DNA from: Planktothrix sp.
GTDB taxonomy: Bacteria; Cyanobacteriota; Cyanobacteriia; Cyanobacteriales; Microcoleaceae
Direction of reading: 5' to 3'
Assembly (NCBI GenBank): GCA_048595135.1
Contig: JBMDYE010000129.1
Location: 1 to 51,369 of the forward strand
Length of the DNA: 51,369 bases
The notes under the pieces were generated by a model, which saw nothing but the letters and a program-made list of their open reading frames with translations, was not told the DNA's origin and searched no databases. A program made the translations under genes and the position numbers. Below, in pieces: positions 35,475 to 48,788 of the stretch (its first letter is position 1; each line of letters opens with the position of its first letter).

Positions 35475-37220
35475 ATGACTCAAAAATCGATTACAACCGT
35501 CGTAAATTCTAATTCCCAGCGGAATTTTACCTTCACTAAACGTGGGTTGGTTTCACTAATAGGTGGATTTTTTACCACATTAATTGCCGCTTTCCCTGTT
35601 CAGGCAGCCGAGGATGTTTCCTTAACCTTTGGAAATGCTAAAATCACCGTGTCTGTAGAAGCGTTAGAAGCCTATGCGAACTCAGGAACGGTTGATCCCA
35701 AATTAAGAAGTTTTTTGCTGATCTTGAATGGAGAAGATCAAGAACAGTTTAAAAATGTCTTACTTGATCCCCATAAAATCGACTCGGTGATGCTATCTCA
35801 ATTTTTAAATTCCCGGACAGGAGATATATTTTTAAGGAAACTAGGCAATATTATTCAAGCTGAAAGAAACCTACAAGATTCAGTAGCCATTCAAAATGGA
35901 TCAGAAGCGATTAAAACAGCTTTAATTAAATCAAGTCAAGAGCCGGAAGGAATCACGTTACTGAATATTCTACGGCAATTTCCCAATCCAGAAATTCAAC
36001 TCAATATCCAACATATTTTTCAACTGCGGAGCCAGGTAAATGACCTCCTAGAAGAAACCAATGCCGTTGTTGCAGAAATTGTTAAATTATCCTCAGAAGA
36101 AATGGCTTTAGCTCCTACGATTGATTATAGTAAAAAAAGAGATTTAAAGCAATCAGGAGACTTTCAAGTTAACAAAAAAACGTTAACGTTAAAAGATACT
36201 CAACGGAATCGAGAATTAGTCGTTGATCTTTATATTCCCAGTCCATTAAGTGCCGTTAAACGGGGAAAAGTTAATTCTATTCCCATTATTATGATTTCTC
36301 ACGGATTAGCCGCTAACCGCGCTAATTTTGCTTATTTAGGAGAACATTTAGCCTCTCATGGATTTTTAGCGGTTCTTCCTCAACATCCAGGGAGTGATAC
36401 GGATCAACTCCAAGCTTGGTTATCCGGTCAAGTTTCCGATGGATTTCAAGTCACTGAATTTATTGACCGACCCCTCGATATTCACTTTATTTTAAATGAA
36501 TTAGAAGCGCGAAATGCCAGTGAATTTAATGGTCAGTTAAATCTGCAAAAAGTTGGGGTAGCGGGTCATTCTTTTGGGGCTTATACTGCCTTAGCCGTCG
36601 CCGGAGCTAAAATTGATTTTAATAATTTAAGAAAAGAATGCACACATCAGTTTAATTCGATTAATTTAGCCCAGATTTTCCAATGTCGAGCCTTAGAACT
36701 GCCCGAACAAACCTATAATTTTAGAGATGAACGGGTAAAAGCCATTGTGGTAATGAATCCGGTTAATAGTAGTATTTTTGGGCAACAAAGTTTAAGCAAA
36801 ATTTCAATTCCGGTGTTCTGGAAAACCAGTGGAAAAGATACCGTCGCGCCTGTTGCTTGGGAACAAGTGCGATCCTTTACCTGGTTAACGACCCGGCAAA
36901 AATATTTATTATTAGCAGAAGGCGATCGCCATATTAACCTGAATTTAAACTTAATGAATCAAACCCTGAGTGCCTCTTTAAAAGAAATTGTTGCCCCCGT
37001 TCCTGAACCTGTAACCGAATATATTCGCGCCTTTAGTCTGGCTTTTTTTGAAGCCTATGTCAGAGAAGATCAAACCTATAAATCTTATCTAAATGCGTCC
37101 TATGCTAAAACCATTAGTCAAGAACCTTATCCCCTCAGCTTAGTTCATTCTCTTTCAGCCGAACAGTTTTTACAAGTGTTAGAAAGTCGGCCAAAAACTC
37201 GATCTTCCGAACCTAACTAA
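35475..37220 (+). CDS. Secreted DUF1400-type domain + alpha/beta hydrolase, paralog 1
   Basis: 581 aa. It has a signal/anchor, an N-terminal module (ITVSVEALEAYANSG) and a hydrolase core (ISHGLAANRANFAYLGEHLASHGF, GHSFGAYTAL). Confidence 0.8.
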   Translation: MTQKSITTVVNSNSQRNFTFTKRGLVSLIGGFFTTLIAAFPVQAAEDVSLTFGNAKITVSVEALEAYANSGTVDPKLRSFLLILNGEDQEQFKNVLLDPHKIDSVMLSQFLNSRTGDIFLRKLGNIIQAERNLQDSVAIQNGSEAIKTALIKSSQEPEGITLLNILRQFPNPEIQLNIQHIFQLRSQVNDLLEETNAVVAEIVKLSSEEMALAPTIDYSKKRDLKQSGDFQVNKKTLTLKDTQRNRELVVDLYIPSPLSAVKRGKVNSIPIIMISHGLAANRANFAYLGEHLASHGFLAVLPQHPGSDTDQLQAWLSGQVSDGFQVTEFIDRPLDIHFILNELEARNASEFNGQLNLQKVGVAGHSFGAYTALAVAGAKIDFNNLRKECTHQFNSINLAQIFQCRALELPEQTYNFRDERVKAIVVMNPVNSSIFGQQSLSKISIPVFWKTSGKDTVAPVAWEQVRSFTWLTTRQKYLLLAEGDRHINLNLNLMNQTLSASLKEIVAPVPEPVTEYIRAFSLAFFEAYVREDQTYKSYLNASYAKTISQEPYPLSLVHSLSAEQFLQVLESRPKTRSSEPN

Positions 37221-37291
37221 TGCAGAATACAATATTGTTAAGCCTTCTGATTCTGACTTCTGCCCTCTCAAACAATTAGGAAATCGCAATT

Positions 37292-38929
37292 ATGCGTTGG
37301 TTTCACGCTTTAACGTTAGCAACTGTCTTAACGATTGGATCAGCTTTTCCTGGGGTTGCCGCTGATTTTATCGTCTTACCCCTTGGCAAAAATAATGTAA
37401 AAATTTCCGTCAATTCTTTAGAAACCTATGCAAAAGGAGGTCAATTAAATCAAGATGATCCGTTGTTTCCCTATCTGAAATTATTAAATCCTCAACAAGA
37501 ACAAAGCTTCCGAAAAATCTTACAATCTCGTTATTCTCCCCAAGGGGTTTCGATTGATCAATTCTTAAATTCTCCTTTAGTCGCTGGACTTTTAATTAAC
37601 CTTGGAAAACTATTACAAACTCAGTCGGGAGACAATGGCGCCAGTGCGATCCAAACGGCGGTTGTTCAAGCGGCTAAGACTTCCCCTGACTTTACCCTTT
37701 TAGAGATTATCCGTCAGTTTCCCAGTCCTGAAATTCGGGTGAATCTGGAGCAAGCGGTGGGAACAATGGCAGAATTATTAACGTTAGTTCAGCAAACGGA
37801 ATCGGCTTTTAATCGTTTAGAAGAATTATCAAAACTTGAAGCAGCAACAACAACCCCTGTTAATTTTAATCAAATGCAAGATTTAAGAAAACAGGGGAAC
37901 TTAAAGGTTTCTAAGCAAACCATTTCTGTTCCTAGTTCTCAAGGCAATGGTTCCTTTGAGGCTGATGTTTATTTTCCGGAACTTAACTCCAATCAATTTT
38001 CCTATCCTGTCCTGGTCATTTCTCATGGTTTAGCGTCCCACCGTTCTCGGTTTGAAAATTTAGCAAAACATCTCACTTCCTACGGATTTGCGGTGGCAGT
38101 TCCGCAACATTTAGGCAGTGATTATCAACATTTTCAATCTTTAATTCATGGGAATACGGAGAATTTATTAGAACCGGAAGAATTTCTAAACCGACCCAGG
38201 GATATTACCCAGTTACTGAATGAACTAGAAACATTAAATAGTTCCTTATTTAAAAATCAGTTAAATCTAGAAAATGTCGGGATTATTGGTCATTCGTTAG
38301 GGGGATATACCGCTTTAGTATTAGGGGGAGCTACCCTCAATTTTACCCAACTTAAAACCGACTGTGAACGGGAAGAAATTCCCTTAAATCCGTCTCTTTT
38401 TCTTCAGTGTTTAGTCTTAAAAATTCCTGAAGCTAATTATAATTTACAAGATCCAAGAGTGCAAGCTGTTTTAGTTTTAAATCCATTAAATAGTAGCGTT
38501 TTAGGAGAATTAGGATTAAGCCGAATTCAAGTTCCTGTGATGATGGCAACGAGCAGTGCTGATTTCTTAACCCCTGCGGTATTAGAACAAATAAAATCCT
38601 TTACTTGGCTGACAACTCCCCATAAATATTTAGTGGTTCAAAATCGAGCGAATCATTTTTTTGATATCAGAGACAAAGATAACTCAGAACAATCCGTCAT
38701 TTCTTCGTTAGTTTCTCCGAGTTCTGAAATTAATCATGGTTATATTAGAGCCTTAAGTGTTGCATTTTTTAAAACCTATATTACTCAAGATTCTCAATAC
38801 AAACCCTATCTCAATGCCGCTTATACTCAAACAATTACTAACTCTAATTATCCTCTCAGTTTAGTGCAATCTTTCACCCCAGAGCAATTCGCTGAAGTGG
38901 TTAAGCGTAGAACATTTCCCCAAGAATAA
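37292..38929 (+). CDS. Secreted DUF1400-type domain + alpha/beta hydrolase, paralog 2
   Basis: 545 aa with the same block order (ISVNSLETYAKGG, ISHGLASHRSRFENLAKHLTSYGF, GHSLGGYTAL). Confidence 0.8.
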   Translation: MRWFHALTLATVLTIGSAFPGVAADFIVLPLGKNNVKISVNSLETYAKGGQLNQDDPLFPYLKLLNPQQEQSFRKILQSRYSPQGVSIDQFLNSPLVAGLLINLGKLLQTQSGDNGASAIQTAVVQAAKTSPDFTLLEIIRQFPSPEIRVNLEQAVGTMAELLTLVQQTESAFNRLEELSKLEAATTTPVNFNQMQDLRKQGNLKVSKQTISVPSSQGNGSFEADVYFPELNSNQFSYPVLVISHGLASHRSRFENLAKHLTSYGFAVAVPQHLGSDYQHFQSLIHGNTENLLEPEEFLNRPRDITQLLNELETLNSSLFKNQLNLENVGIIGHSLGGYTALVLGGATLNFTQLKTDCEREEIPLNPSLFLQCLVLKIPEANYNLQDPRVQAVLVLNPLNSSVLGELGLSRIQVPVMMATSSADFLTPAVLEQIKSFTWLTTPHKYLVVQNRANHFFDIRDKDNSEQSVISSLVSPSSEINHGYIRALSVAFFKTYITQDSQYKPYLNAAYTQTITNSNYPLSLVQSFTPEQFAEVVKRRTFPQE

Positions 38930-39029
38930 TGATCTAGACTGGGAAATTCTCACGTTTTTATTGAATAAAAATTTACGGCTAGCATTTTTAATGCTAAAAT
39001 TAGCTCAATTATTTTAATTGACTCCATCA

Positions 39030-40715
39030 ATGAACTTATTTAATAAACCTTCGGTTTGCCCAAAAAACATTAAAAAAAAGTTAAATAATTCTAGGCTCTA
39101 TTTCCACTTTTCTAGTCTATGTTTAGGAATTTTCTCAGGACTGCTAGCCACGACTTCTTCAGTAATGGCTGCTGAACGAATTGGTCTTAAATATGATATT
39201 GGTACGGCTTATGTTTCCGTTGCTGACCTCGAAAAATTTGCGAAAGAAGGAGATGTTTCTCCGGTTTTATCCGTTTATCAACAAATTTTACAAATCGAAG
39301 ATCAAGAAAAACTGCGTCGGCTTTTACTCACCCCAGCAGAAGCCAGTCCTTGGGCAATTCAACAGTTTAATAATACCCCACTCGGTACGGCTGTTTTAAG
39401 TCGTTTTGGCAATATTATTCGAGTTGATAACGGTCAAAATGGTTTAGATGCTTTAAAAACAGCAATTAATAAAGCATCTGGTCTTGAAAATGGTTTAACG
39501 CTGCTGGGAATTTTACAAGAATTTCCATCTGAAACGATAGAAATTGACCTTAATTATGGGGTAGATATTATTCGAGATTTATCTCAAATTATTTATGAAG
39601 ATAAAACCGTGATTAACTGGATTAATCAACAAGCTAAAACTAAAACCGATAATCCCGCCATTAACAAGCCACATCCTAATTTTAAAAACCCCGGTTCGAT
39701 TCGCTGGGAAAAACAAACCTTTACCTTTCAAAATCCCAATCGCGATCGCCCTTCTCCCGTTGACATTTATATTCCTCAAGTGTCAACTCCTACCTCCGTT
39801 ATTGTTATTTCTCATGGGTTAGGTTCGGATCGAAATACCTTCAAATATCTAGCCGAACATTTAGCGTCTCATGGCTATTTTGTCGCCGTTGTTGAACATT
39901 TAGCCACCAGTGCGGAAGGATTAGGAAACTTTTTTCAAGGTTTGTCTAAACCCCCTAACCCCACAGAATTTATTAATCGACCGTTAGATATTAAATTATT
40001 ACTAGATGCTTTAGAAAAAAAAGCCAACGCTGCCGAATTTCCTAGCCCATTATTACTTAATAATGTAGGGGTACTCGGTCAATCCTATGGCGGTTATACA
40101 GCCTTAGCGTTAGCAGGTGCTAAATTGAATCCTAATCAACTTAATCAAGAATGCGATAACTCAACAAATCGAAGAATTACATTAAATATTTCTGTCTTCC
40201 TTCAATGTCGAGCTAGCGATGTTATTAATCAAGCTAATAATATTCAAGATAAACGTGTTAAAGCTATTATTGCAATTAACCCGTTTACTAGCCTCATCTT
40301 TGGAGAAGAAGGGATGAGCCAAGTTAAAATTCCAACCTTAATGATTGGGAGTAGTAATGATTATGTGGCGCCTGCATTCAGTGAACAAATTATTCCGTTT
40401 ACTTGGCTAAAAAATCCTGAAAAACATTTAATTTTATTAGATCAGGGAACGCATTTTTCCTTCTTAGAACCCGGAGAATCAGTTCTCCCAGTTCCGGCTC
40501 AAATGGTCGGGCCTGATCCACAACTGTCTTTTCCTTATTTAAAAGCAATCAGTTTAGTATTTTTTAATAGTTATATTCGCGACGAAGTGGAGTATTTACC
40601 CTTTTTAAGCCCTGGTTATATTAAAAGAATGGAACAAGCTCCATTTGGTTTAAGTATTATTGATTCTTTAACAAAAGAAGAACTTCAAGCGATTATTAGT
40701 GACCCGTCCCAATGA
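39030..40715 (+). CDS. Secreted DUF1400-type domain + alpha/beta hydrolase, paralog 3
   Basis: The ORF track starts at TTG 39018; I prefer the ATG at 39030. The same blocks are present (VSVADLEKFAKEG, ISHGLGSDRNTFKYLAEHLASHGY, GQSYGGYTAL). Confidence 0.8.
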   Translation: MNLFNKPSVCPKNIKKKLNNSRLYFHFSSLCLGIFSGLLATTSSVMAAERIGLKYDIGTAYVSVADLEKFAKEGDVSPVLSVYQQILQIEDQEKLRRLLLTPAEASPWAIQQFNNTPLGTAVLSRFGNIIRVDNGQNGLDALKTAINKASGLENGLTLLGILQEFPSETIEIDLNYGVDIIRDLSQIIYEDKTVINWINQQAKTKTDNPAINKPHPNFKNPGSIRWEKQTFTFQNPNRDRPSPVDIYIPQVSTPTSVIVISHGLGSDRNTFKYLAEHLASHGYFVAVVEHLATSAEGLGNFFQGLSKPPNPTEFINRPLDIKLLLDALEKKANAAEFPSPLLLNNVGVLGQSYGGYTALALAGAKLNPNQLNQECDNSTNRRITLNISVFLQCRASDVINQANNIQDKRVKAIIAINPFTSLIFGEEGMSQVKIPTLMIGSSNDYVAPAFSEQIIPFTWLKNPEKHLILLDQGTHFSFLEPGESVLPVPAQMVGPDPQLSFPYLKAISLVFFNSYIRDEVEYLPFLSPGYIKRMEQAPFGLSIIDSLTKEELQAIISDPSQ

Positions 40716-40934: not shown

Positions 40935-41573
40935 CTAATCTAAAAAGGGCTGAATACTGAAATCTTTGAAAGTAATTGTATAACTCAACCGTTTTCCTGT
41001 TGTAATAAATTTCATCATCGTTTCACTCGCAACCCCAACGGTTAAAACTACTAAATTTCGAGCCAAAGGATAATCACAAACATCATCATTAACATCAGAA
41101 GGAACGCGATAATATTCATTCCAAATTACCTCAGCATAATCACTGGATAATCCGACATGAAGACAAGGTAAATTCAGATTCATACAGTAATCGGTCACAA
41201 TTTGACGCGCAATACTGTTATCAAAGGCATCAATAACTAAACCCCTATTACTGAACAGTTGCTTAATATTAGAAGCGGTTAACTCCTTCGTTTCAACTTG
41301 AATTTGTACCCCAATGGCACGATATAAAGAATTGGCTAAAATTTTCGCTTTAAATGCTCCCACATCTGAACGATAATAAGGTTGAGTCGAAAGATTATGT
41401 TCTTCAATGCGATCGCGATCAATCACTTTTACATTTCCAAACCCAGACCGCACTAAATTTTCAGTTAAATTCGCACCCAACGCACCCGCACCACAAATCG
41501 CGATCGGAAACTGACGAAATTGTTCTAAAACTTGACAAGAACGATACAATTGTTCATGTAAAAAAATAGACAT
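40935..41573 (-). CDS. Minimal ThiF/MoeB/HesA-family E1-like adenylyltransferase
   Basis: 212 aa. It has a Rossmann ATP-binding block (ICGAGALGANLTENLVRSGFGNVKVIDRDRIEEHNLSTQ), the Mg/ATP Asp block (VIDAFDN) and a single later Cys (DDVCDYP). Confidence 0.85.
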   Translation of the reverse strand: MSIFLHEQLYRSCQVLEQFRQFPIAICGAGALGANLTENLVRSGFGNVKVIDRDRIEEHNLSTQPYYRSDVGAFKAKILANSLYRAIGVQIQVETKELTASNIKQLFSNRGLVIDAFDNSIARQIVTDYCMNLNLPCLHVGLSSDYAEVIWNEYYRVPSDVNDDVCDYPLARNLVVLTVGVASETMMKFITTGKRLSYTITFKDFSIQPFLD

Positions 41574-41672: not shown

Positions 41673-42500
41673 TCAATCCCGATTTTCAACCACCGCAACC
41701 AAGGATTGTAAATCAAACTCTTGATCCCGTCCGCTTAAACAAATTCCTGCACCAATGACCGTTAAATCCTGCTTAGAAATCGCGCTACTGTGTTGTTCTC
41801 CAGTTCGAGTTGTCCATTGAACTGTCCAATACTCTCCTTGATCATAAAACTGTTCTAAGGTTCCTCCTGCAAAATTTAAAGCCGTTTTCAAGCGTTTTTC
41901 ATCTTGATTTTGTTGAGAAAATTCCTCTCGATTTTGGGTAACTAATTCATAAACGGTTCGGAGTTCGGGAGTCATCCCCGAAAACCGTAAATCTTGAGGA
42001 AAAACTAACCCTTTGAAAGCCGTTTGTAGTGCTTCAATAGCAGACAGATCAGCGCGCCGATCTAAGTCTTCAAACCACCAAGCCGAACCATCCCAACGCG
42101 CAATAATTTGTTCAAAAGAAACCCCTTCCGTTACTAAATGAACCACGACAGGTTTAACATTGTTAAACCGTTGTTTCATATCCCCTTCATTACTCGGATA
42201 AGCTAGCCAAGTTTGATGTTTTAATTGATACGCTAACCGTAACCGTAACGCTTTAAACTGTTGTAAATATTTAGAAATTTGCGCTAAATTTGCCTCCTCA
42301 ATTACCTCAGCATAGCGTTCATTGACAGGTTGAAAGATTCCCCATCCTGCAAAATTTTTCGGCTGGGGAAGAAACGTATAAACTAAATGATTAACTCTGG
42401 TTCTGACTCGTCCGGCTTTCACACAAGGCGCGAGAAATTGCGTTAAACGCAGTTGTGTTTCGGAAGCAGAAACTTGATTAAGCAATTGATGAATATTCAT
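41673..42500 (-). CDS. Hypothetical protein with a C-terminal GAGICLSG motif, possibly E2/UBC-like
   Basis: 275-aa ORF. Its ATG lies 1 nt after the kptA stop, which suggests translational coupling. I recognised no known family. The motif is discussed in the findings. Confidence 0.7.
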   Translation of the reverse strand: MNIHQLLNQVSASETQLRLTQFLAPCVKAGRVRTRVNHLVYTFLPQPKNFAGWGIFQPVNERYAEVIEEANLAQISKYLQQFKALRLRLAYQLKHQTWLAYPSNEGDMKQRFNNVKPVVVHLVTEGVSFEQIIARWDGSAWWFEDLDRRADLSAIEALQTAFKGLVFPQDLRFSGMTPELRTVYELVTQNREEFSQQNQDEKRLKTALNFAGGTLEQFYDQGEYWTVQWTTRTGEQHSSAISKQDLTVIGAGICLSGRDQEFDLQSLVAVVENRD

Positions 42501-42501
42501 A

Positions 42502-43056
42502 TTAATCCTCCATCTTTGATAAATAATTAGGAGGAACGTGATCGACTAACCAAACGTTATTAGCAGAACAGTAAAACGGAATCCCCGCTTGATTCATGGC
42601 GGCGGCATCAATTTTCAAAATAACTGGACGACCCTGCCGCATTCCCACCCGTTTTGCGGTGTCAATATCTATTGATAAATGCACATGATGACGAGACATT
42701 TTTAACAGTCCCGACTGCAAAATCGAATTAACAAATTGTTCTGCGGTTCCATGATATAAACTATCTGGTGGCGTTTGCGGTTCTAGTTGTAAATCAACTT
42801 CCACACTATGACCTTGATTGGCTCTTATTTTCGTTCCCATTTCATCAAAGGAAAAGCGTTTTTTATCATTAGTTGCGACCACTTCTTCTAATTGTTCACG
42901 GGTAATGGGAAATTGATGATTTGCACAAGCGGTTAACAGTTCATCCACATCAACCCATCCCCCAGGTGCTAAGTTTAATCCCAAACGTTCGGGTTGATGG
43001 CGCAAATGTTTACTTAAATATTTGCTAATTTTAATAAGTTGTTTTTCTGTTCTCAT
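42502..43056 (-). CDS. kptA: RNA 2'-phosphotransferase (KptA/Tpt1 family)
   Basis: 184 aa. LSKHLRHQPERLGL...GGWVDVDELL, RANQGHS, LYHGT and HHVHLS are the conserved Tpt1/KptA R-H-R-R blocks. Confidence 0.9.
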   Translation of the reverse strand: MRTEKQLIKISKYLSKHLRHQPERLGLNLAPGGWVDVDELLTACANHQFPITREQLEEVVATNDKKRFSFDEMGTKIRANQGHSVEVDLQLEPQTPPDSLYHGTAEQFVNSILQSGLLKMSRHHVHLSIDIDTAKRVGMRQGRPVILKIDAAAMNQAGIPFYCSANNVWLVDHVPPNYLSKMED

Positions 43057-43139: not shown

Positions 43140-43286
43140 CGCTCTCAGAAATGATTGAAAATCCCGTATAAGTTTAAAAAGCAGGTCACGTTTTATTAGT
43201 TTACTTTTCAGGTAAAGTGTGTAGGCTTTTTGAATTAGGATACGGGATTTTTGGGGATCACTTCATGTAAGTTGAAAAAGCTGTGA

Positions 43287-43360
43287 TGGATCATACGCAG
43301 GATTTGAACCTGCTACCAATCGAACCTTAATCGATCGCTCTACCAATGAGCTAGTATGTA
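43287..43360 (-). tRNA. tRNA-like gene with a degenerate acceptor stem, possibly a pseudo-tRNA or specialised RNA; the anticodon-loop position reads AAG
   Basis: The reverse complement folds as TACATAC-TA-GCTC-ATTGGTA-GAGC-G-ATCGA-TTAAGGT-TCGAT-TGGTA-GCAGG-TTCAAAT-CCTGC-GTATGAT-CCA. The D, anticodon and T arms are canonical. Acceptor pairs 1:72 (T/T) and 2:71 (A/A) are mismatched. Confidence 0.5.
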
Positions 43361-43425
43361 AGCTTTGTCGGTTAGGACACGAAGTGATATTAAGATTAAC
43401 CTCCGTCAATACTTAAGGCTAATTT

Positions 43426-43650
<225 letters not shown>

Positions 43651-43694: not shown

Positions 43695-43723
43695 ATACTA
43701 CATTTGTACTACAAAGTTGTCAA
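43695..43723 (-). promoter_or_regulatory. Sigma70-type promoter for the 66-aa gene (-35 TTGACA, 17-nt spacer, -10 TAGTAT), overlapped by a LexA-box-like sequence
   Basis: The minus strand reads TTGACA-actttgtagtacaaatg-TAGTAT. The spacer and -10 contain TAGTACAAATGTAGTA (43696-43711). Confidence 0.4.
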
Positions 43724-43920: not shown

Positions 43921-44181
43921 TTAAATGACGCCTAAGTTGGAGAGTCCTAAAATCACTCCAGCACCTAAGATGTGACCGAAACTGGTGGTTGCTAAAACCG
44001 CAGGTAAACCGAACCCACCAAACATATTAGAGGCGGGGAGTTGGGGGCCAGCATTGGGATATTTGATGGTGTATCTACCGATCGCGATCGCTAAAATATT
44101 GCAAACGATCATAATAATAGCAGTGGTGGGACTCCAAGGATGAGTCGAGACAGTGCGAGTAATTTCAGCTAAAAGCAGCAT
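43921..44181 (-). CDS. psaK: Photosystem I subunit PsaK
   Basis: 86 aa with two TM helices. The blocks PWSPTTAIIMI...GFGLPAVLATTSFGHILGAG are typical of PsaK. Confidence 0.9.
   Translation of the reverse strand: MLLLAEITRTVSTHPWSPTTAIIMIVCNILAIAIGRYTIKYPNAGPQLPASNMFGGFGLPAVLATTSFGHILGAGVILGLSNLGVI

Positions 44182-48715: not shown

Positions 48716-48788
<73 letters not shown>

Follow-up and report, generated by a model that had tools for sequence, protein, structure and literature searches.

The window analysed here is the whole stretch of 51,369 nucleotides (nt) from Planktothrix sp. (contig JBMDYE010000129.1 of assembly GCA_048595135.1), and our subject is a tRNA-like element within it, whose cloverleaf lies at 43288-43360 on the minus strand. 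All sequence statements below hold when read on that strand. In minus-strand order, psaK (43921-44181) is followed by an open reading frame (ORF) for a protein of 66 amino acids (aa) that is putatively ubiquitin-like (Ubl), by the tRNA-like element, by kptA, by a gene for a 275-aa protein and by a ThiF/E1-like gene. A preliminary description, made from the letters of the window, had placed the element downstream of the Ubl-like gene (43426-43626) and upstream of kptA (42502-43056), and this position was confirmed, with all three on the minus strand. We find that this apparent AAG tRNA is a conserved, non-decoding, tRNA-shaped RNA, and that it is neither a decaying tRNA nor an RNA specific to KptA.

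Read from 43360 to 43288, the element is UACAUAC-UA-GCUC-AUUGGUA-GAGC-G-AUCGA-UUAAGGU-UCGAU-UGGUA-GCAGG-UUCAAAU-CCUGC-GUAUGAU-CCA, followed by UCAC. It comprises a 5-bp acceptor stem with an unpaired top, a D arm, an anticodon arm with the loop UUAAGGU, a 5-nt variable loop, a T arm and an encoded CCA. U1/U72 and A2/A71 are unpaired, the CCA follows immediately on the 3' side with no clean discriminator, and the full 7-bp acceptor stem with discriminator and CCA expected of a decoding tRNA is not found. The cloverleaf arms, the AAG at the anticodon position, the two unpaired acceptor positions, the CCA and the pairing of the leader AAAGCU with the trailer AGCUUU had all been pointed out in the preliminary description, and each was recovered here. 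ARAGORN assigns 43288-43360 to tRNA-Leu(aag) and puts the anticodon at position 33, one position early. The Rfam tRNA model RF00005 matches at 48.8 bits (E 1.7e-7; gathering score 29) and aligns over model positions 3-68 only, so that the pairs 1:72 (U/U) and 2:71 (A/A) are excluded from the alignment; for comparison, a genuine tRNA-Phe at 48716-48788 reaches 70.9 bits over its full length. Rfam 15 recognises the element solely as a tRNA. U8, the D-loop GG (G18G19), the T loop UUCAAAU, the 5-nt variable loop and U33 are all retained; the residues that make the tertiary contacts of tRNA (U8, G18G19, T loop) are supported by invariant columns in an alignment of 56 copies of the element.

The leader-trailer pairing is part of a longer pair of helices. 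In the minimum-free-energy fold of 43255-43385, the cloverleaf is enclosed by two outer helices (z -2.6). The whole module, as delimited by a family covariance model that includes the flanks (R1), by the fold and by covariation of the outer helices, spans 43260-43385. It consists of an outer helix P0 (ACUUCGUGU/ACAUGAAGU), an internal loop CCUAAC/CAACUU, a helix P1 (AAAGCU/AGCUUU), a handle UACAUAC and the tRNA-like head, whose extent (43288-43360) and type A-like character are taken from ARAGORN, RF00005 and the pair counts of the 56-copy alignment. The CCA sits in a 3' bulge between two helices. R1 matches the window element at 100.7 bits (E 5e-24) over 43264-43374, and the tRNA-Phe of the window at 39.6 bits in the body only.

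Relatives were fetched through the 275-aa protein, which gave 80 loci with 5-kb flanks; the gene survey, by tblastn, covers these 80 and the window (81 loci). ARAGORN finds one or two same-strand tRNA-like genes upstream of the cassette in about 50 of the 80 loci, with widely varying anticodons that are often placed at position 33 or 35, and all tRNA-like genes found at these loci begin (U)UACAUAC, as the window element does. Type A modules, which include the window copy, have the D arm GCUCAAUGGUAGAGC and the anticodon stem GAUCG, and type B modules have the D arm GCCGAAUGGUAAGGC and the anticodon stem ACUUGA. An encoded N73-CCA is present in 17 of 19 type A modules and in the window, against 2 of 36 type B modules. 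Where D stem and anticodon stem meet in the window, GAGCGAUCGA (43334-43340) contains the core of the cyanobacterial HIP1 palindrome GCGATCG, and the same is seen in most type A copies. Matches to R1 of at least 100 bits occur in distant genera. Viral contigs were also scanned for AAGCTTACATACTWGC, with 23 matches; there R1 matched nothing but ordinary tRNA genes and revealed no viral copies of the module, and the one pattern site that was inspected (L087) is not a module.

The fold of this family is maintained under selection, with compensatory changes present. Across the 56 copies with their flanks, 93.6% of the cells of the cloverleaf and the leader-trailer helix are paired, compared with 28-50% in slid controls; 12 pairs are altered on both sides, and none of 500 shuffles reached the observed values. 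The leader-trailer helix is itself 97% paired. The "broken" acceptor top is characteristic of the family, as 40 of 55 sequences have A.A at position 2:71; in the window and its closest relatives one of these A residues has been lost, which leaves a bulged A, then U73, then the CCA. The preliminary description had suggested a possible pseudo-tRNA. An origin as a decaying copy of an ordinary tRNA gene, or as a remnant of an integration site, would suit a body that resembles Lys/Asn/Ile-type tRNAs and an acceptor that is broken at its top, but it is contradicted by conservation across dozens of species, in which changes are compensated and the flanks are kept, by the constant placement on the operon strand and by close relatives that are near identical outside the anticodon. 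The imperfect acceptor top and the leader-trailer helix are themselves conserved. We therefore regard such an origin as scarcely credible, and the other proposal of the preliminary description, a dedicated RNA component of the cassette, is the one that holds, given the conservation at homologous loci.

The anticodon behaves differently from the rest of the molecule. Mean column entropy is 0.87-0.91 bits in the anticodon loop and at most 0.3 in the acceptor 5' strand, the D arm, the T arm and the flanks, with up to 0.65 in the variable loop; U33 is invariant and position 37 is mostly a purine. Comparison of near-identical copies gives 0.27-0.30 differences per site per pair at positions 34-36, 0.20-0.24 in the remainder of the anticodon loop and 0.00-0.07 in the other regions. 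Conservation of the leader and trailer exceeds that of the anticodon stem-loop and the variable loop and, in type A, that of the acceptor 3' strand as well. In the closest relatives the triplet is CUG where the window has AAG, and the 73-nt bodies of the window element and of one of these relatives (L111) differ only at positions 34 and 35. Observed triplets include UAA, GAA, UGA, UUU, CUG, CUA, UCA, UUA, AAA, AUU and AAU; there are 13 distinct loops among 19 type A copies and 20 among 36 type B copies, and two loops have only 6 nt. As the triplet is free to change among relatives, AAG is not a conserved anticodon, and its oddity with A34 is one state of a freely changing site.

This behaviour argues against decoding, for which conservation of the anticodon among orthologous genes would be expected and is not seen. 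A working decoding or suppressor tRNA, reading for example CUU, or stop codons in the relatives, would be in keeping with the complete cloverleaf, U33, the T loop, the D-loop GG and the encoded CCA, as well as with the CUA, UUA or UCA that type A relatives often carry. Such a tRNA is contradicted by a triplet that shifts from AAG to CUG between close relatives, by loops of 6 nt, by the unpaired acceptor top without a clean discriminator and by the stronger conservation of leader and trailer relative to the anticodon stem-loop. To our knowledge, bacterial tRNAs also do not use A34 for leucine. We consider a decoding role very improbable, and the earlier view that this is not a normal decoding tRNA was borne out. 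Within single genomes, a comparison by eye of type A with type B anticodon loops, and of these loops with the hairpin module, revealed no pattern of complementarity. No reverse transcriptase, as would accompany targeted mutagenesis by a diversity-generating retroelement, is among the ORFs annotated near the modules, although no search was aimed at it.

The tRNA-like elements are part of a larger set. A scan for the 5' handle showed that several other elements of each Nostoc-type locus share this 5' start, and the modules have a common architecture of P0, an internal loop (5' CC-Y-R-A-Y / 3' AACUU), P1 (for example GAAAAAGCU/AGCUUUUUC), the handle UACAUAC and a head. In 84 loci, a regular expression for the borders of this framework has 161 matches, all of them on the cassette strand and none on the opposite one; in the window it has 2. 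Over 127 distinct flank pairs, the seven inner pairs of P0 are 95-99% paired and the core of P1 is 94-99% paired, most of them with 2-4 pair types, compared with 30-52% in slid registers. The 5' internal loop C-C-N-N-A is nearly invariant in these flank pairs, though it lies outside the search pattern, and P0 and P1 covary between module classes.

Several classes of head are found on this stem besides the tRNA-like types A and B, which are defined by the ARAGORN-called copies and the 56-copy alignment. A permuted tRNA-like head of about 124 nt (L012, 665-788; 26 loci) has the order T arm, closed acceptor hairpin, D arm, a circular permutation, and shows a weak match to the Rfam YrlA model (25.2 bits, E 0.0027), short of the gathering score of 69. 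The "S" module, which the window lacks, occurs in L012 (4702-4906) and in about 40 further loci, some 270-700 nt upstream of the 275-aa gene, and contains AGUACGAGAGGA, an exact copy of the sarcin-ricin loop motif. It also contains a 56-nt stretch that Infernal aligns to positions 1093-1148 of the large-subunit (LSU) rRNA model at 46-53 bits (E 1e-10 to 6e-13), the L11-binding region or GTPase-associated centre; its thermodynamic z-score is not significant. The "H" module (L012, 474-640; 11 loci) carries AUAACGG(U/C)CCUAAGGUAG on the common stem and presumably shares up to 18 nt with the H69-71 region of 23S rRNA, an identity for which the Infernal LSU model gives no match. A small hairpin of about 61 nt is found in Nostoc-type loci. 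Judged by these sequence matches, the heads are interchangeable on one stem and imitate tRNA and particular sites of 23S rRNA.

The small-hairpin class has a counterpart in the window. The preliminary description was correct in listing the tRNA-like element but overlooked a second structured module at 43158-43251 on the minus strand, between the tRNA-like element and kptA, which corresponds to the ~61-nt class of the Nostoc loci. It is identified by a weak R1 match (43165-43237), its fold, the framework expression and its conservation in the two closest relatives (L108 and L111). P0 (AAAAUCCCGUAU/AUACGGGAUUUU) is a perfect 12-bp helix, P1 is AAAAAGC/GCUUUUU, the handle is the variant UACACAC and the head is a short hairpin. 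Its fold has a z-score of -5.7, and none of 200 shuffles was equally good.

The modules fill nearly every intergenic gap of the Nostoc-type operon, on the coding strand throughout. They could accordingly be cis-acting processing or stability elements that punctuate a polycistronic transcript, in which the nearly continuous helix of P0, P1 and acceptor, or the tRNA shape, would recruit RNase III, RNase P or RNase Z for cleavage of the operon mRNA into units and the heads would have no function in trans. The conserved and covarying outer helices are in line with this, and RNase P is known to cut the tRNA-like domain of one Y RNA (PMC4201824). In the window, a promoter-like site (TTGACA-17-TAGTAT, 43695-43723, minus strand) lies about 70 nt upstream of the 66-aa gene by a consensus scan, and the same scan shows no terminator-like site from there to kptA, so that none separates the Ubl gene, the modules and kptA. 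Left unaccounted for would be the near-exact copying of functional rRNA sites by the heads, the retention of an encoded CCA and of the whole anticodon arm, U33 included, and three loci (L081-83) in which the Ubl gene and a tRNA-like module occur by themselves, away from any other cassette gene. We think a purely cis-acting role doubtful.

Among the cassette proteins, the 66-aa protein (43426-43626) is the one most closely tied to the RNA, as its gene is the most constant neighbour of type A modules. It was recognised from its translation, 135 homologues and their alignment, and it has a constant length of 66 aa, an invariant C-terminus RPEAVYG-stop (alignment A6) and 58% identity to a 69-aa ORF of Nostoc. 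Searches of Pfam, NCBIfam, PADLOC and PDB sequences returned no match, and none to ThiS, MoaD or ubiquitin; two database clusters that hold its homologues are named Ubiquitin-like or MoaD/ThiS. The label Ubl is thus a working hypothesis drawn from size, terminal glycine, the E1-like neighbour and these two database names. The 212-aa ThiF/E1-like adenylyltransferase (40935-41573) is a minimal E1-like adenylating domain (PF00899, 4.7e-28; PADLOC E1-E2 models down to 1.7e-14). The kptA gene (42502-43056) is intact and encodes an RNA 2'-phosphotransferase of the Tpt1/KptA family (PF01885, 1e-55; NF002014, 287.7 bits against a cutoff of 239).

The 275-aa core protein (41673-42500) belongs to no known family, as judged from a homologue survey, AlphaFold and Foldseek. 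It has 825 homologues, those with names being nearly all cyanobacterial; relatives occur in 515 species-representative genomes, and the family forms 864 clusters at 50% identity. An AlphaFold run with 19 close homologues was unusable (predicted local distance difference test, pLDDT, 52.6); after the alignment had been diversified to 52 representatives, the model reached a pLDDT of 96.1 and a predicted template modelling score of 0.85, with OB-fold-like barrels. Foldseek finds local OB-fold likeness only (IF1, S17, proteasomal ATPase OB domains, Tudor-SN and a telomere end-binding protein) and no full-length PDB match (best E 5e-3), and Pfam gives no match for 52 members of the family. This local similarity in the model suggests a nucleic-acid binder. 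Cys254 is invariant within GICLSG; an E2-like active site at this motif was considered and is unsupported, as Foldseek gave no full-length match. In the model, Foldseek and Pfam searches, the 275-aa protein shows no E2 or JAB match and so offers no E2-like or JAB-type partner.

Most relatives of the cassette have in addition a 477-aa vWA protein, whose gene is flanked by the modules there. It is 79-97% identical among the cyanobacterial homologues listed, and the copy in L108 is 80% identical to the Nostoc protein. By phmmer it matches a Ro60 homologue of a Thermus phage (PMC12135203) at E 8e-5 over about 380 residues, which suggests a tentative kinship with Ro60.

In the gene survey, the 275-aa protein is present in 81/81 loci, ThiF in 74, adjoining the 275-aa gene, the vWA protein in 62, a 240-aa protein in 43 and the Ubl gene in 33, with many of the other loci ending at the 5-kb flank. 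Accessory genes occupy a variable slot directly upstream of the 275-aa gene: KptA (8 loci), an RNase T-like protein (8), GNAT (7), NADAR (5), EndoU (2), YoeB (2), EEP (1) and an OLD-like protein (1). In ten loci (L005, L006, L009, L024, L026, L066, L070, L073, L078 and L084) the slot around the 275-aa gene gathers RNA-acting or conflict-type genes, including NADAR, Exo_endo_phos, an OLD-like ATPase-TOPRIM protein, a 432-aa EndoU toxin and YoeB with Phd/YefM. Such contents suggest a conflict or RNA-repair context. In 19 Nostoc-type loci the type A module ends 91-140 nt upstream of the Ubl start; in the window, L081-83, Microcoleus vaginatus (L084), L108 and L111 the module lies downstream of the Ubl gene. 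The last two are the closest relatives, with a Ubl protein 91% identical to that of the window. L111 has only 628 bp and contains the Ubl gene and both modules, and L108 retains both modules and the synteny of psaK and Ubl. A 152-aa DUF6847 ORF is inserted in L108 (875-1333) between the Ubl gene and the tRNA-like module, so the spacing of the two is flexible.

Two further observations concern the surroundings of the cassette. Nine copies of the palindrome GAAACCSGGTTTC lie in the window (40860, 40910, 41597, 41650, 43126, 43755, 43808, 121 and 173), compared with 0.09 copies expected. Seven of the nine are intergenic within the cassette, mostly paired about 50 nt apart, and in L108, too, the palindrome is found close to the modules. 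An operator, a hairpin and a genome-wide repeat are all conceivable. Just past the cassette, at 35475-40715 on the plus strand, lie three tandem paralogues (581, 545 and 565 aa), in all of which a DUF1400 domain precedes an alpha/beta-hydrolase domain.

From its place in the cassette upstream of kptA, the preliminary description had named the element a candidate substrate or decoy. As a dedicated KptA substrate or decoy, the RNA would carry or mimic a 2'-phosphate or 5'-phosphate site processed by the enzyme. The yeast Tpt1 substrate is the 2'-phosphate at the splice junction in the tRNA anticodon loop, Tpt1 enzymes can also ADP-ribosylate 5'-phosphate ends, and here a tRNA-shaped RNA does lie beside an intact Tpt1-family gene that is found repeatedly in the variable slot and never on the other strand. 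However, no intron, ligase or other splicing component accompanies it at the window locus, and consistent co-occurrence is not found: 73 of the 81 loci are without kptA, most of these still have the RNA, and five loci with kptA (L001-L003, L011 and L036) have no module within 5 kb. These five, of a Capilliphycus/Lyngbya type, show a protein-only arrangement in which kptA and the genes for an RNase T-like exonuclease and GNAT precede that for the 275-aa protein, with no ThiF, vWA gene or RNA module within the 5-kb flanks. In L108, the vWA gene takes the place that kptA has in the window. KptA is therefore a recurrent accessory and not the defining partner of the RNA, which tracks the 66-aa gene and the 275-aa/ThiF pair, with the vWA gene in relatives; that the RNA is made for KptA is unlikely.

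The constant neighbourhood of type A modules and the Ubl gene raises another option, in which the RNA would be a partner of the Ubl/E1 pair and the adenylated C-terminal glycine of the 66-aa protein would be moved to the CCA-3' end of type A modules, or to an ADP-ribose placed on RNA by KptA. E1 enzymes and aminoacyl-tRNA synthetases both work through an acyl-adenylate, the Ubl always ends in Gly-stop, the encoded N73-CCA is concentrated in type A, and KptA and NADAR, both related to ADP-ribose, recur as accessory genes. Nevertheless, the scheme is purely inferential, we know of no Ubl-RNA conjugate of this type in bacteria, and the Ubl fold of a protein without a Pfam or PDB match is only putative. 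Moreover, with the CCA bulged out between two helices, the RNA would have to be trimmed at its 3' side. We give such a transfer little chance.

A broader alternative takes all the heads together as an RNA-bait system. Small RNAs on one docking stem would display attack sites of the translation machinery, namely tRNA anticodon arms whose triplets change fast, the sarcin-ricin loop and the L11/GTPase-associated centre, with H69-71 as a possible fourth, and would thereby capture or sense ribotoxins or phage factors. The Ubl/E1 pair would tag the captured protein or RNA, KptA, NADAR, RNase T-like, EEP and GNAT enzymes would reverse the damage, and the tRNA-like module of the window would be the surviving bait. 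We hold this to be possible, though on balance improbable.

We favour a reading in which the element is a dedicated, non-decoding, Y-RNA-like tRNA mimic that serves as a bait or tether in an RNA-centred Ubl/E1 system of a conserved cyanobacterial cassette, and we would put its probability at roughly 0.55. It is preferred because bacterial Y RNAs are the closest known RNAs and because the literature treats a TROVE protein with a tRNA-like partner as a repair platform. Bacterial Y RNAs are tRNA mimics with a terminal stem that are encoded beside Ro60 genes (PMC4201824), and TROVE proteins with a tRNA-like partner have been described as an RNA-repair platform, and KptA as a 2'-phosphate clean-up enzyme (PMC7824862). 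The cassette combines the 66-aa Ubl-like protein, the 275-aa OB-fold protein and the ThiF/E1-like enzyme with, in most relatives, the vWA protein of putatively Ro60-like architecture. By analogy with Y RNAs, the shared base of P0, internal loop, P1 and UACAUAC would be a docking platform for a protein of the system. The tRNA-shaped head would be a bait or tether for tRNA-recognising factors such as anticodon nucleases or modification or repair enzymes, and accessory enzymes such as KptA might then act on RNA damage in that context.

The likeness to the bacterial Y RNAs that work with Ro60/Rsr (YrlA of Salmonella and Mycobacterium, Yrn1 of Deinococcus) extends to several features. Both are small RNAs, often several per locus, encoded beside a TROVE gene or, in relatives of the window, a vWA gene of tentative Ro60 kinship, and in both the two ends pair into a stem that bears a tRNA-like domain with D and T arms. 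In Yrn1, as in the module, the acceptor side of the tRNA-like domain runs on into the basal stem (PMC4201824), and the permuted sibling has the weak YrlA match given above. The modules differ from Y RNAs in their full cloverleaf, 7-nt anticodon loop, hypervariable triplet and encoded CCA, in a strictly conserved base of another sequence that also bears rRNA-like heads, and in their linkage to Ubl-like, E1-like and OB-fold proteins.

Several points weigh against a Y-RNA-like mimic. By inspection, the base of the modules (CCYRAY...RAAGCU-UACAUAC / AGCUU...AACUU) lacks the GNCGAAN0-1G motif of Y RNAs (motif from PMC4201824), and the Rfam Y_RNA and YrlA models do not match the window element. No vWA/Ro60-like gene lies within the 51-kb window, and the Ro60 kinship of the vWA protein meets no Pfam TROVE match, nothing in a PDB profile search and an E of 0.067 for a second orthologue. 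What the Ubl/E1 pair does is not explained by the Y-RNA analogy. Plain relaxed constraint, instead of diversifying selection, could account for the rapid change at positions 34-36. Roughly one anticodon triplet in three has no counterpart among bacterial tRNAs, a poor fit to a decoy for specific tRNAs.

Other known RNAs resemble the modules in part. Canonical bacterial tRNAs (RF00005) have no equivalent of the conserved leader-trailer helix pair that encloses the window element, which sits inside a protein operon. The tRNA-like domain of tmRNA and viral tRNA-like structures likewise put a tRNA shape, including the CCA end, to non-decoding use; unlike these, the window element has no mRNA-like part or tmRNA match (ARAGORN, Rfam) and keeps its anticodon arm. 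The S module, for its part, recalls ribosomal-protein operon leaders of the L10/L11 type, in which a transcript segment copies a 23S rRNA protein-binding site, but its neighbours are not ribosomal-protein genes and its mimic stands on the common base together with a sarcin-ricin motif. The literature searched does not describe tRNA- or rRNA-mimic modules on a common stem or their linkage to Ro60, Ubl and E1 proteins, although Burroughs & Aravind 2016 or Sim et al. 2020 may contain an earlier mention. That the system as a whole is new is a real possibility.

In summary, our analysis describes a large family of structured RNAs that Rfam models see as ordinary tRNA or in fragments, and this is its modest reading. 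For genome annotation it carries a warning, since the "tRNA-Leu/Phe/Pyl/SeC/Stop" calls of this kind in cyanobacterial genomes are not tRNAs. We know of no natural substrate established for bacterial KptA and of no established job for the tRNA-like domain of bacterial Y RNAs; the family offers a concrete, widespread and genetically compact test bed for both questions. Its unusual traits are the exchangeable heads on one stem, the tight linkage to Ubl, E1 and OB-fold proteins, and the recurrent insertion of RNA-end or ADP-ribose enzymes. If the heads are indeed baits or tethers, the cyanobacterial cassette would represent a new coupling of RNA mimicry to ubiquitin-like chemistry or RNA repair.

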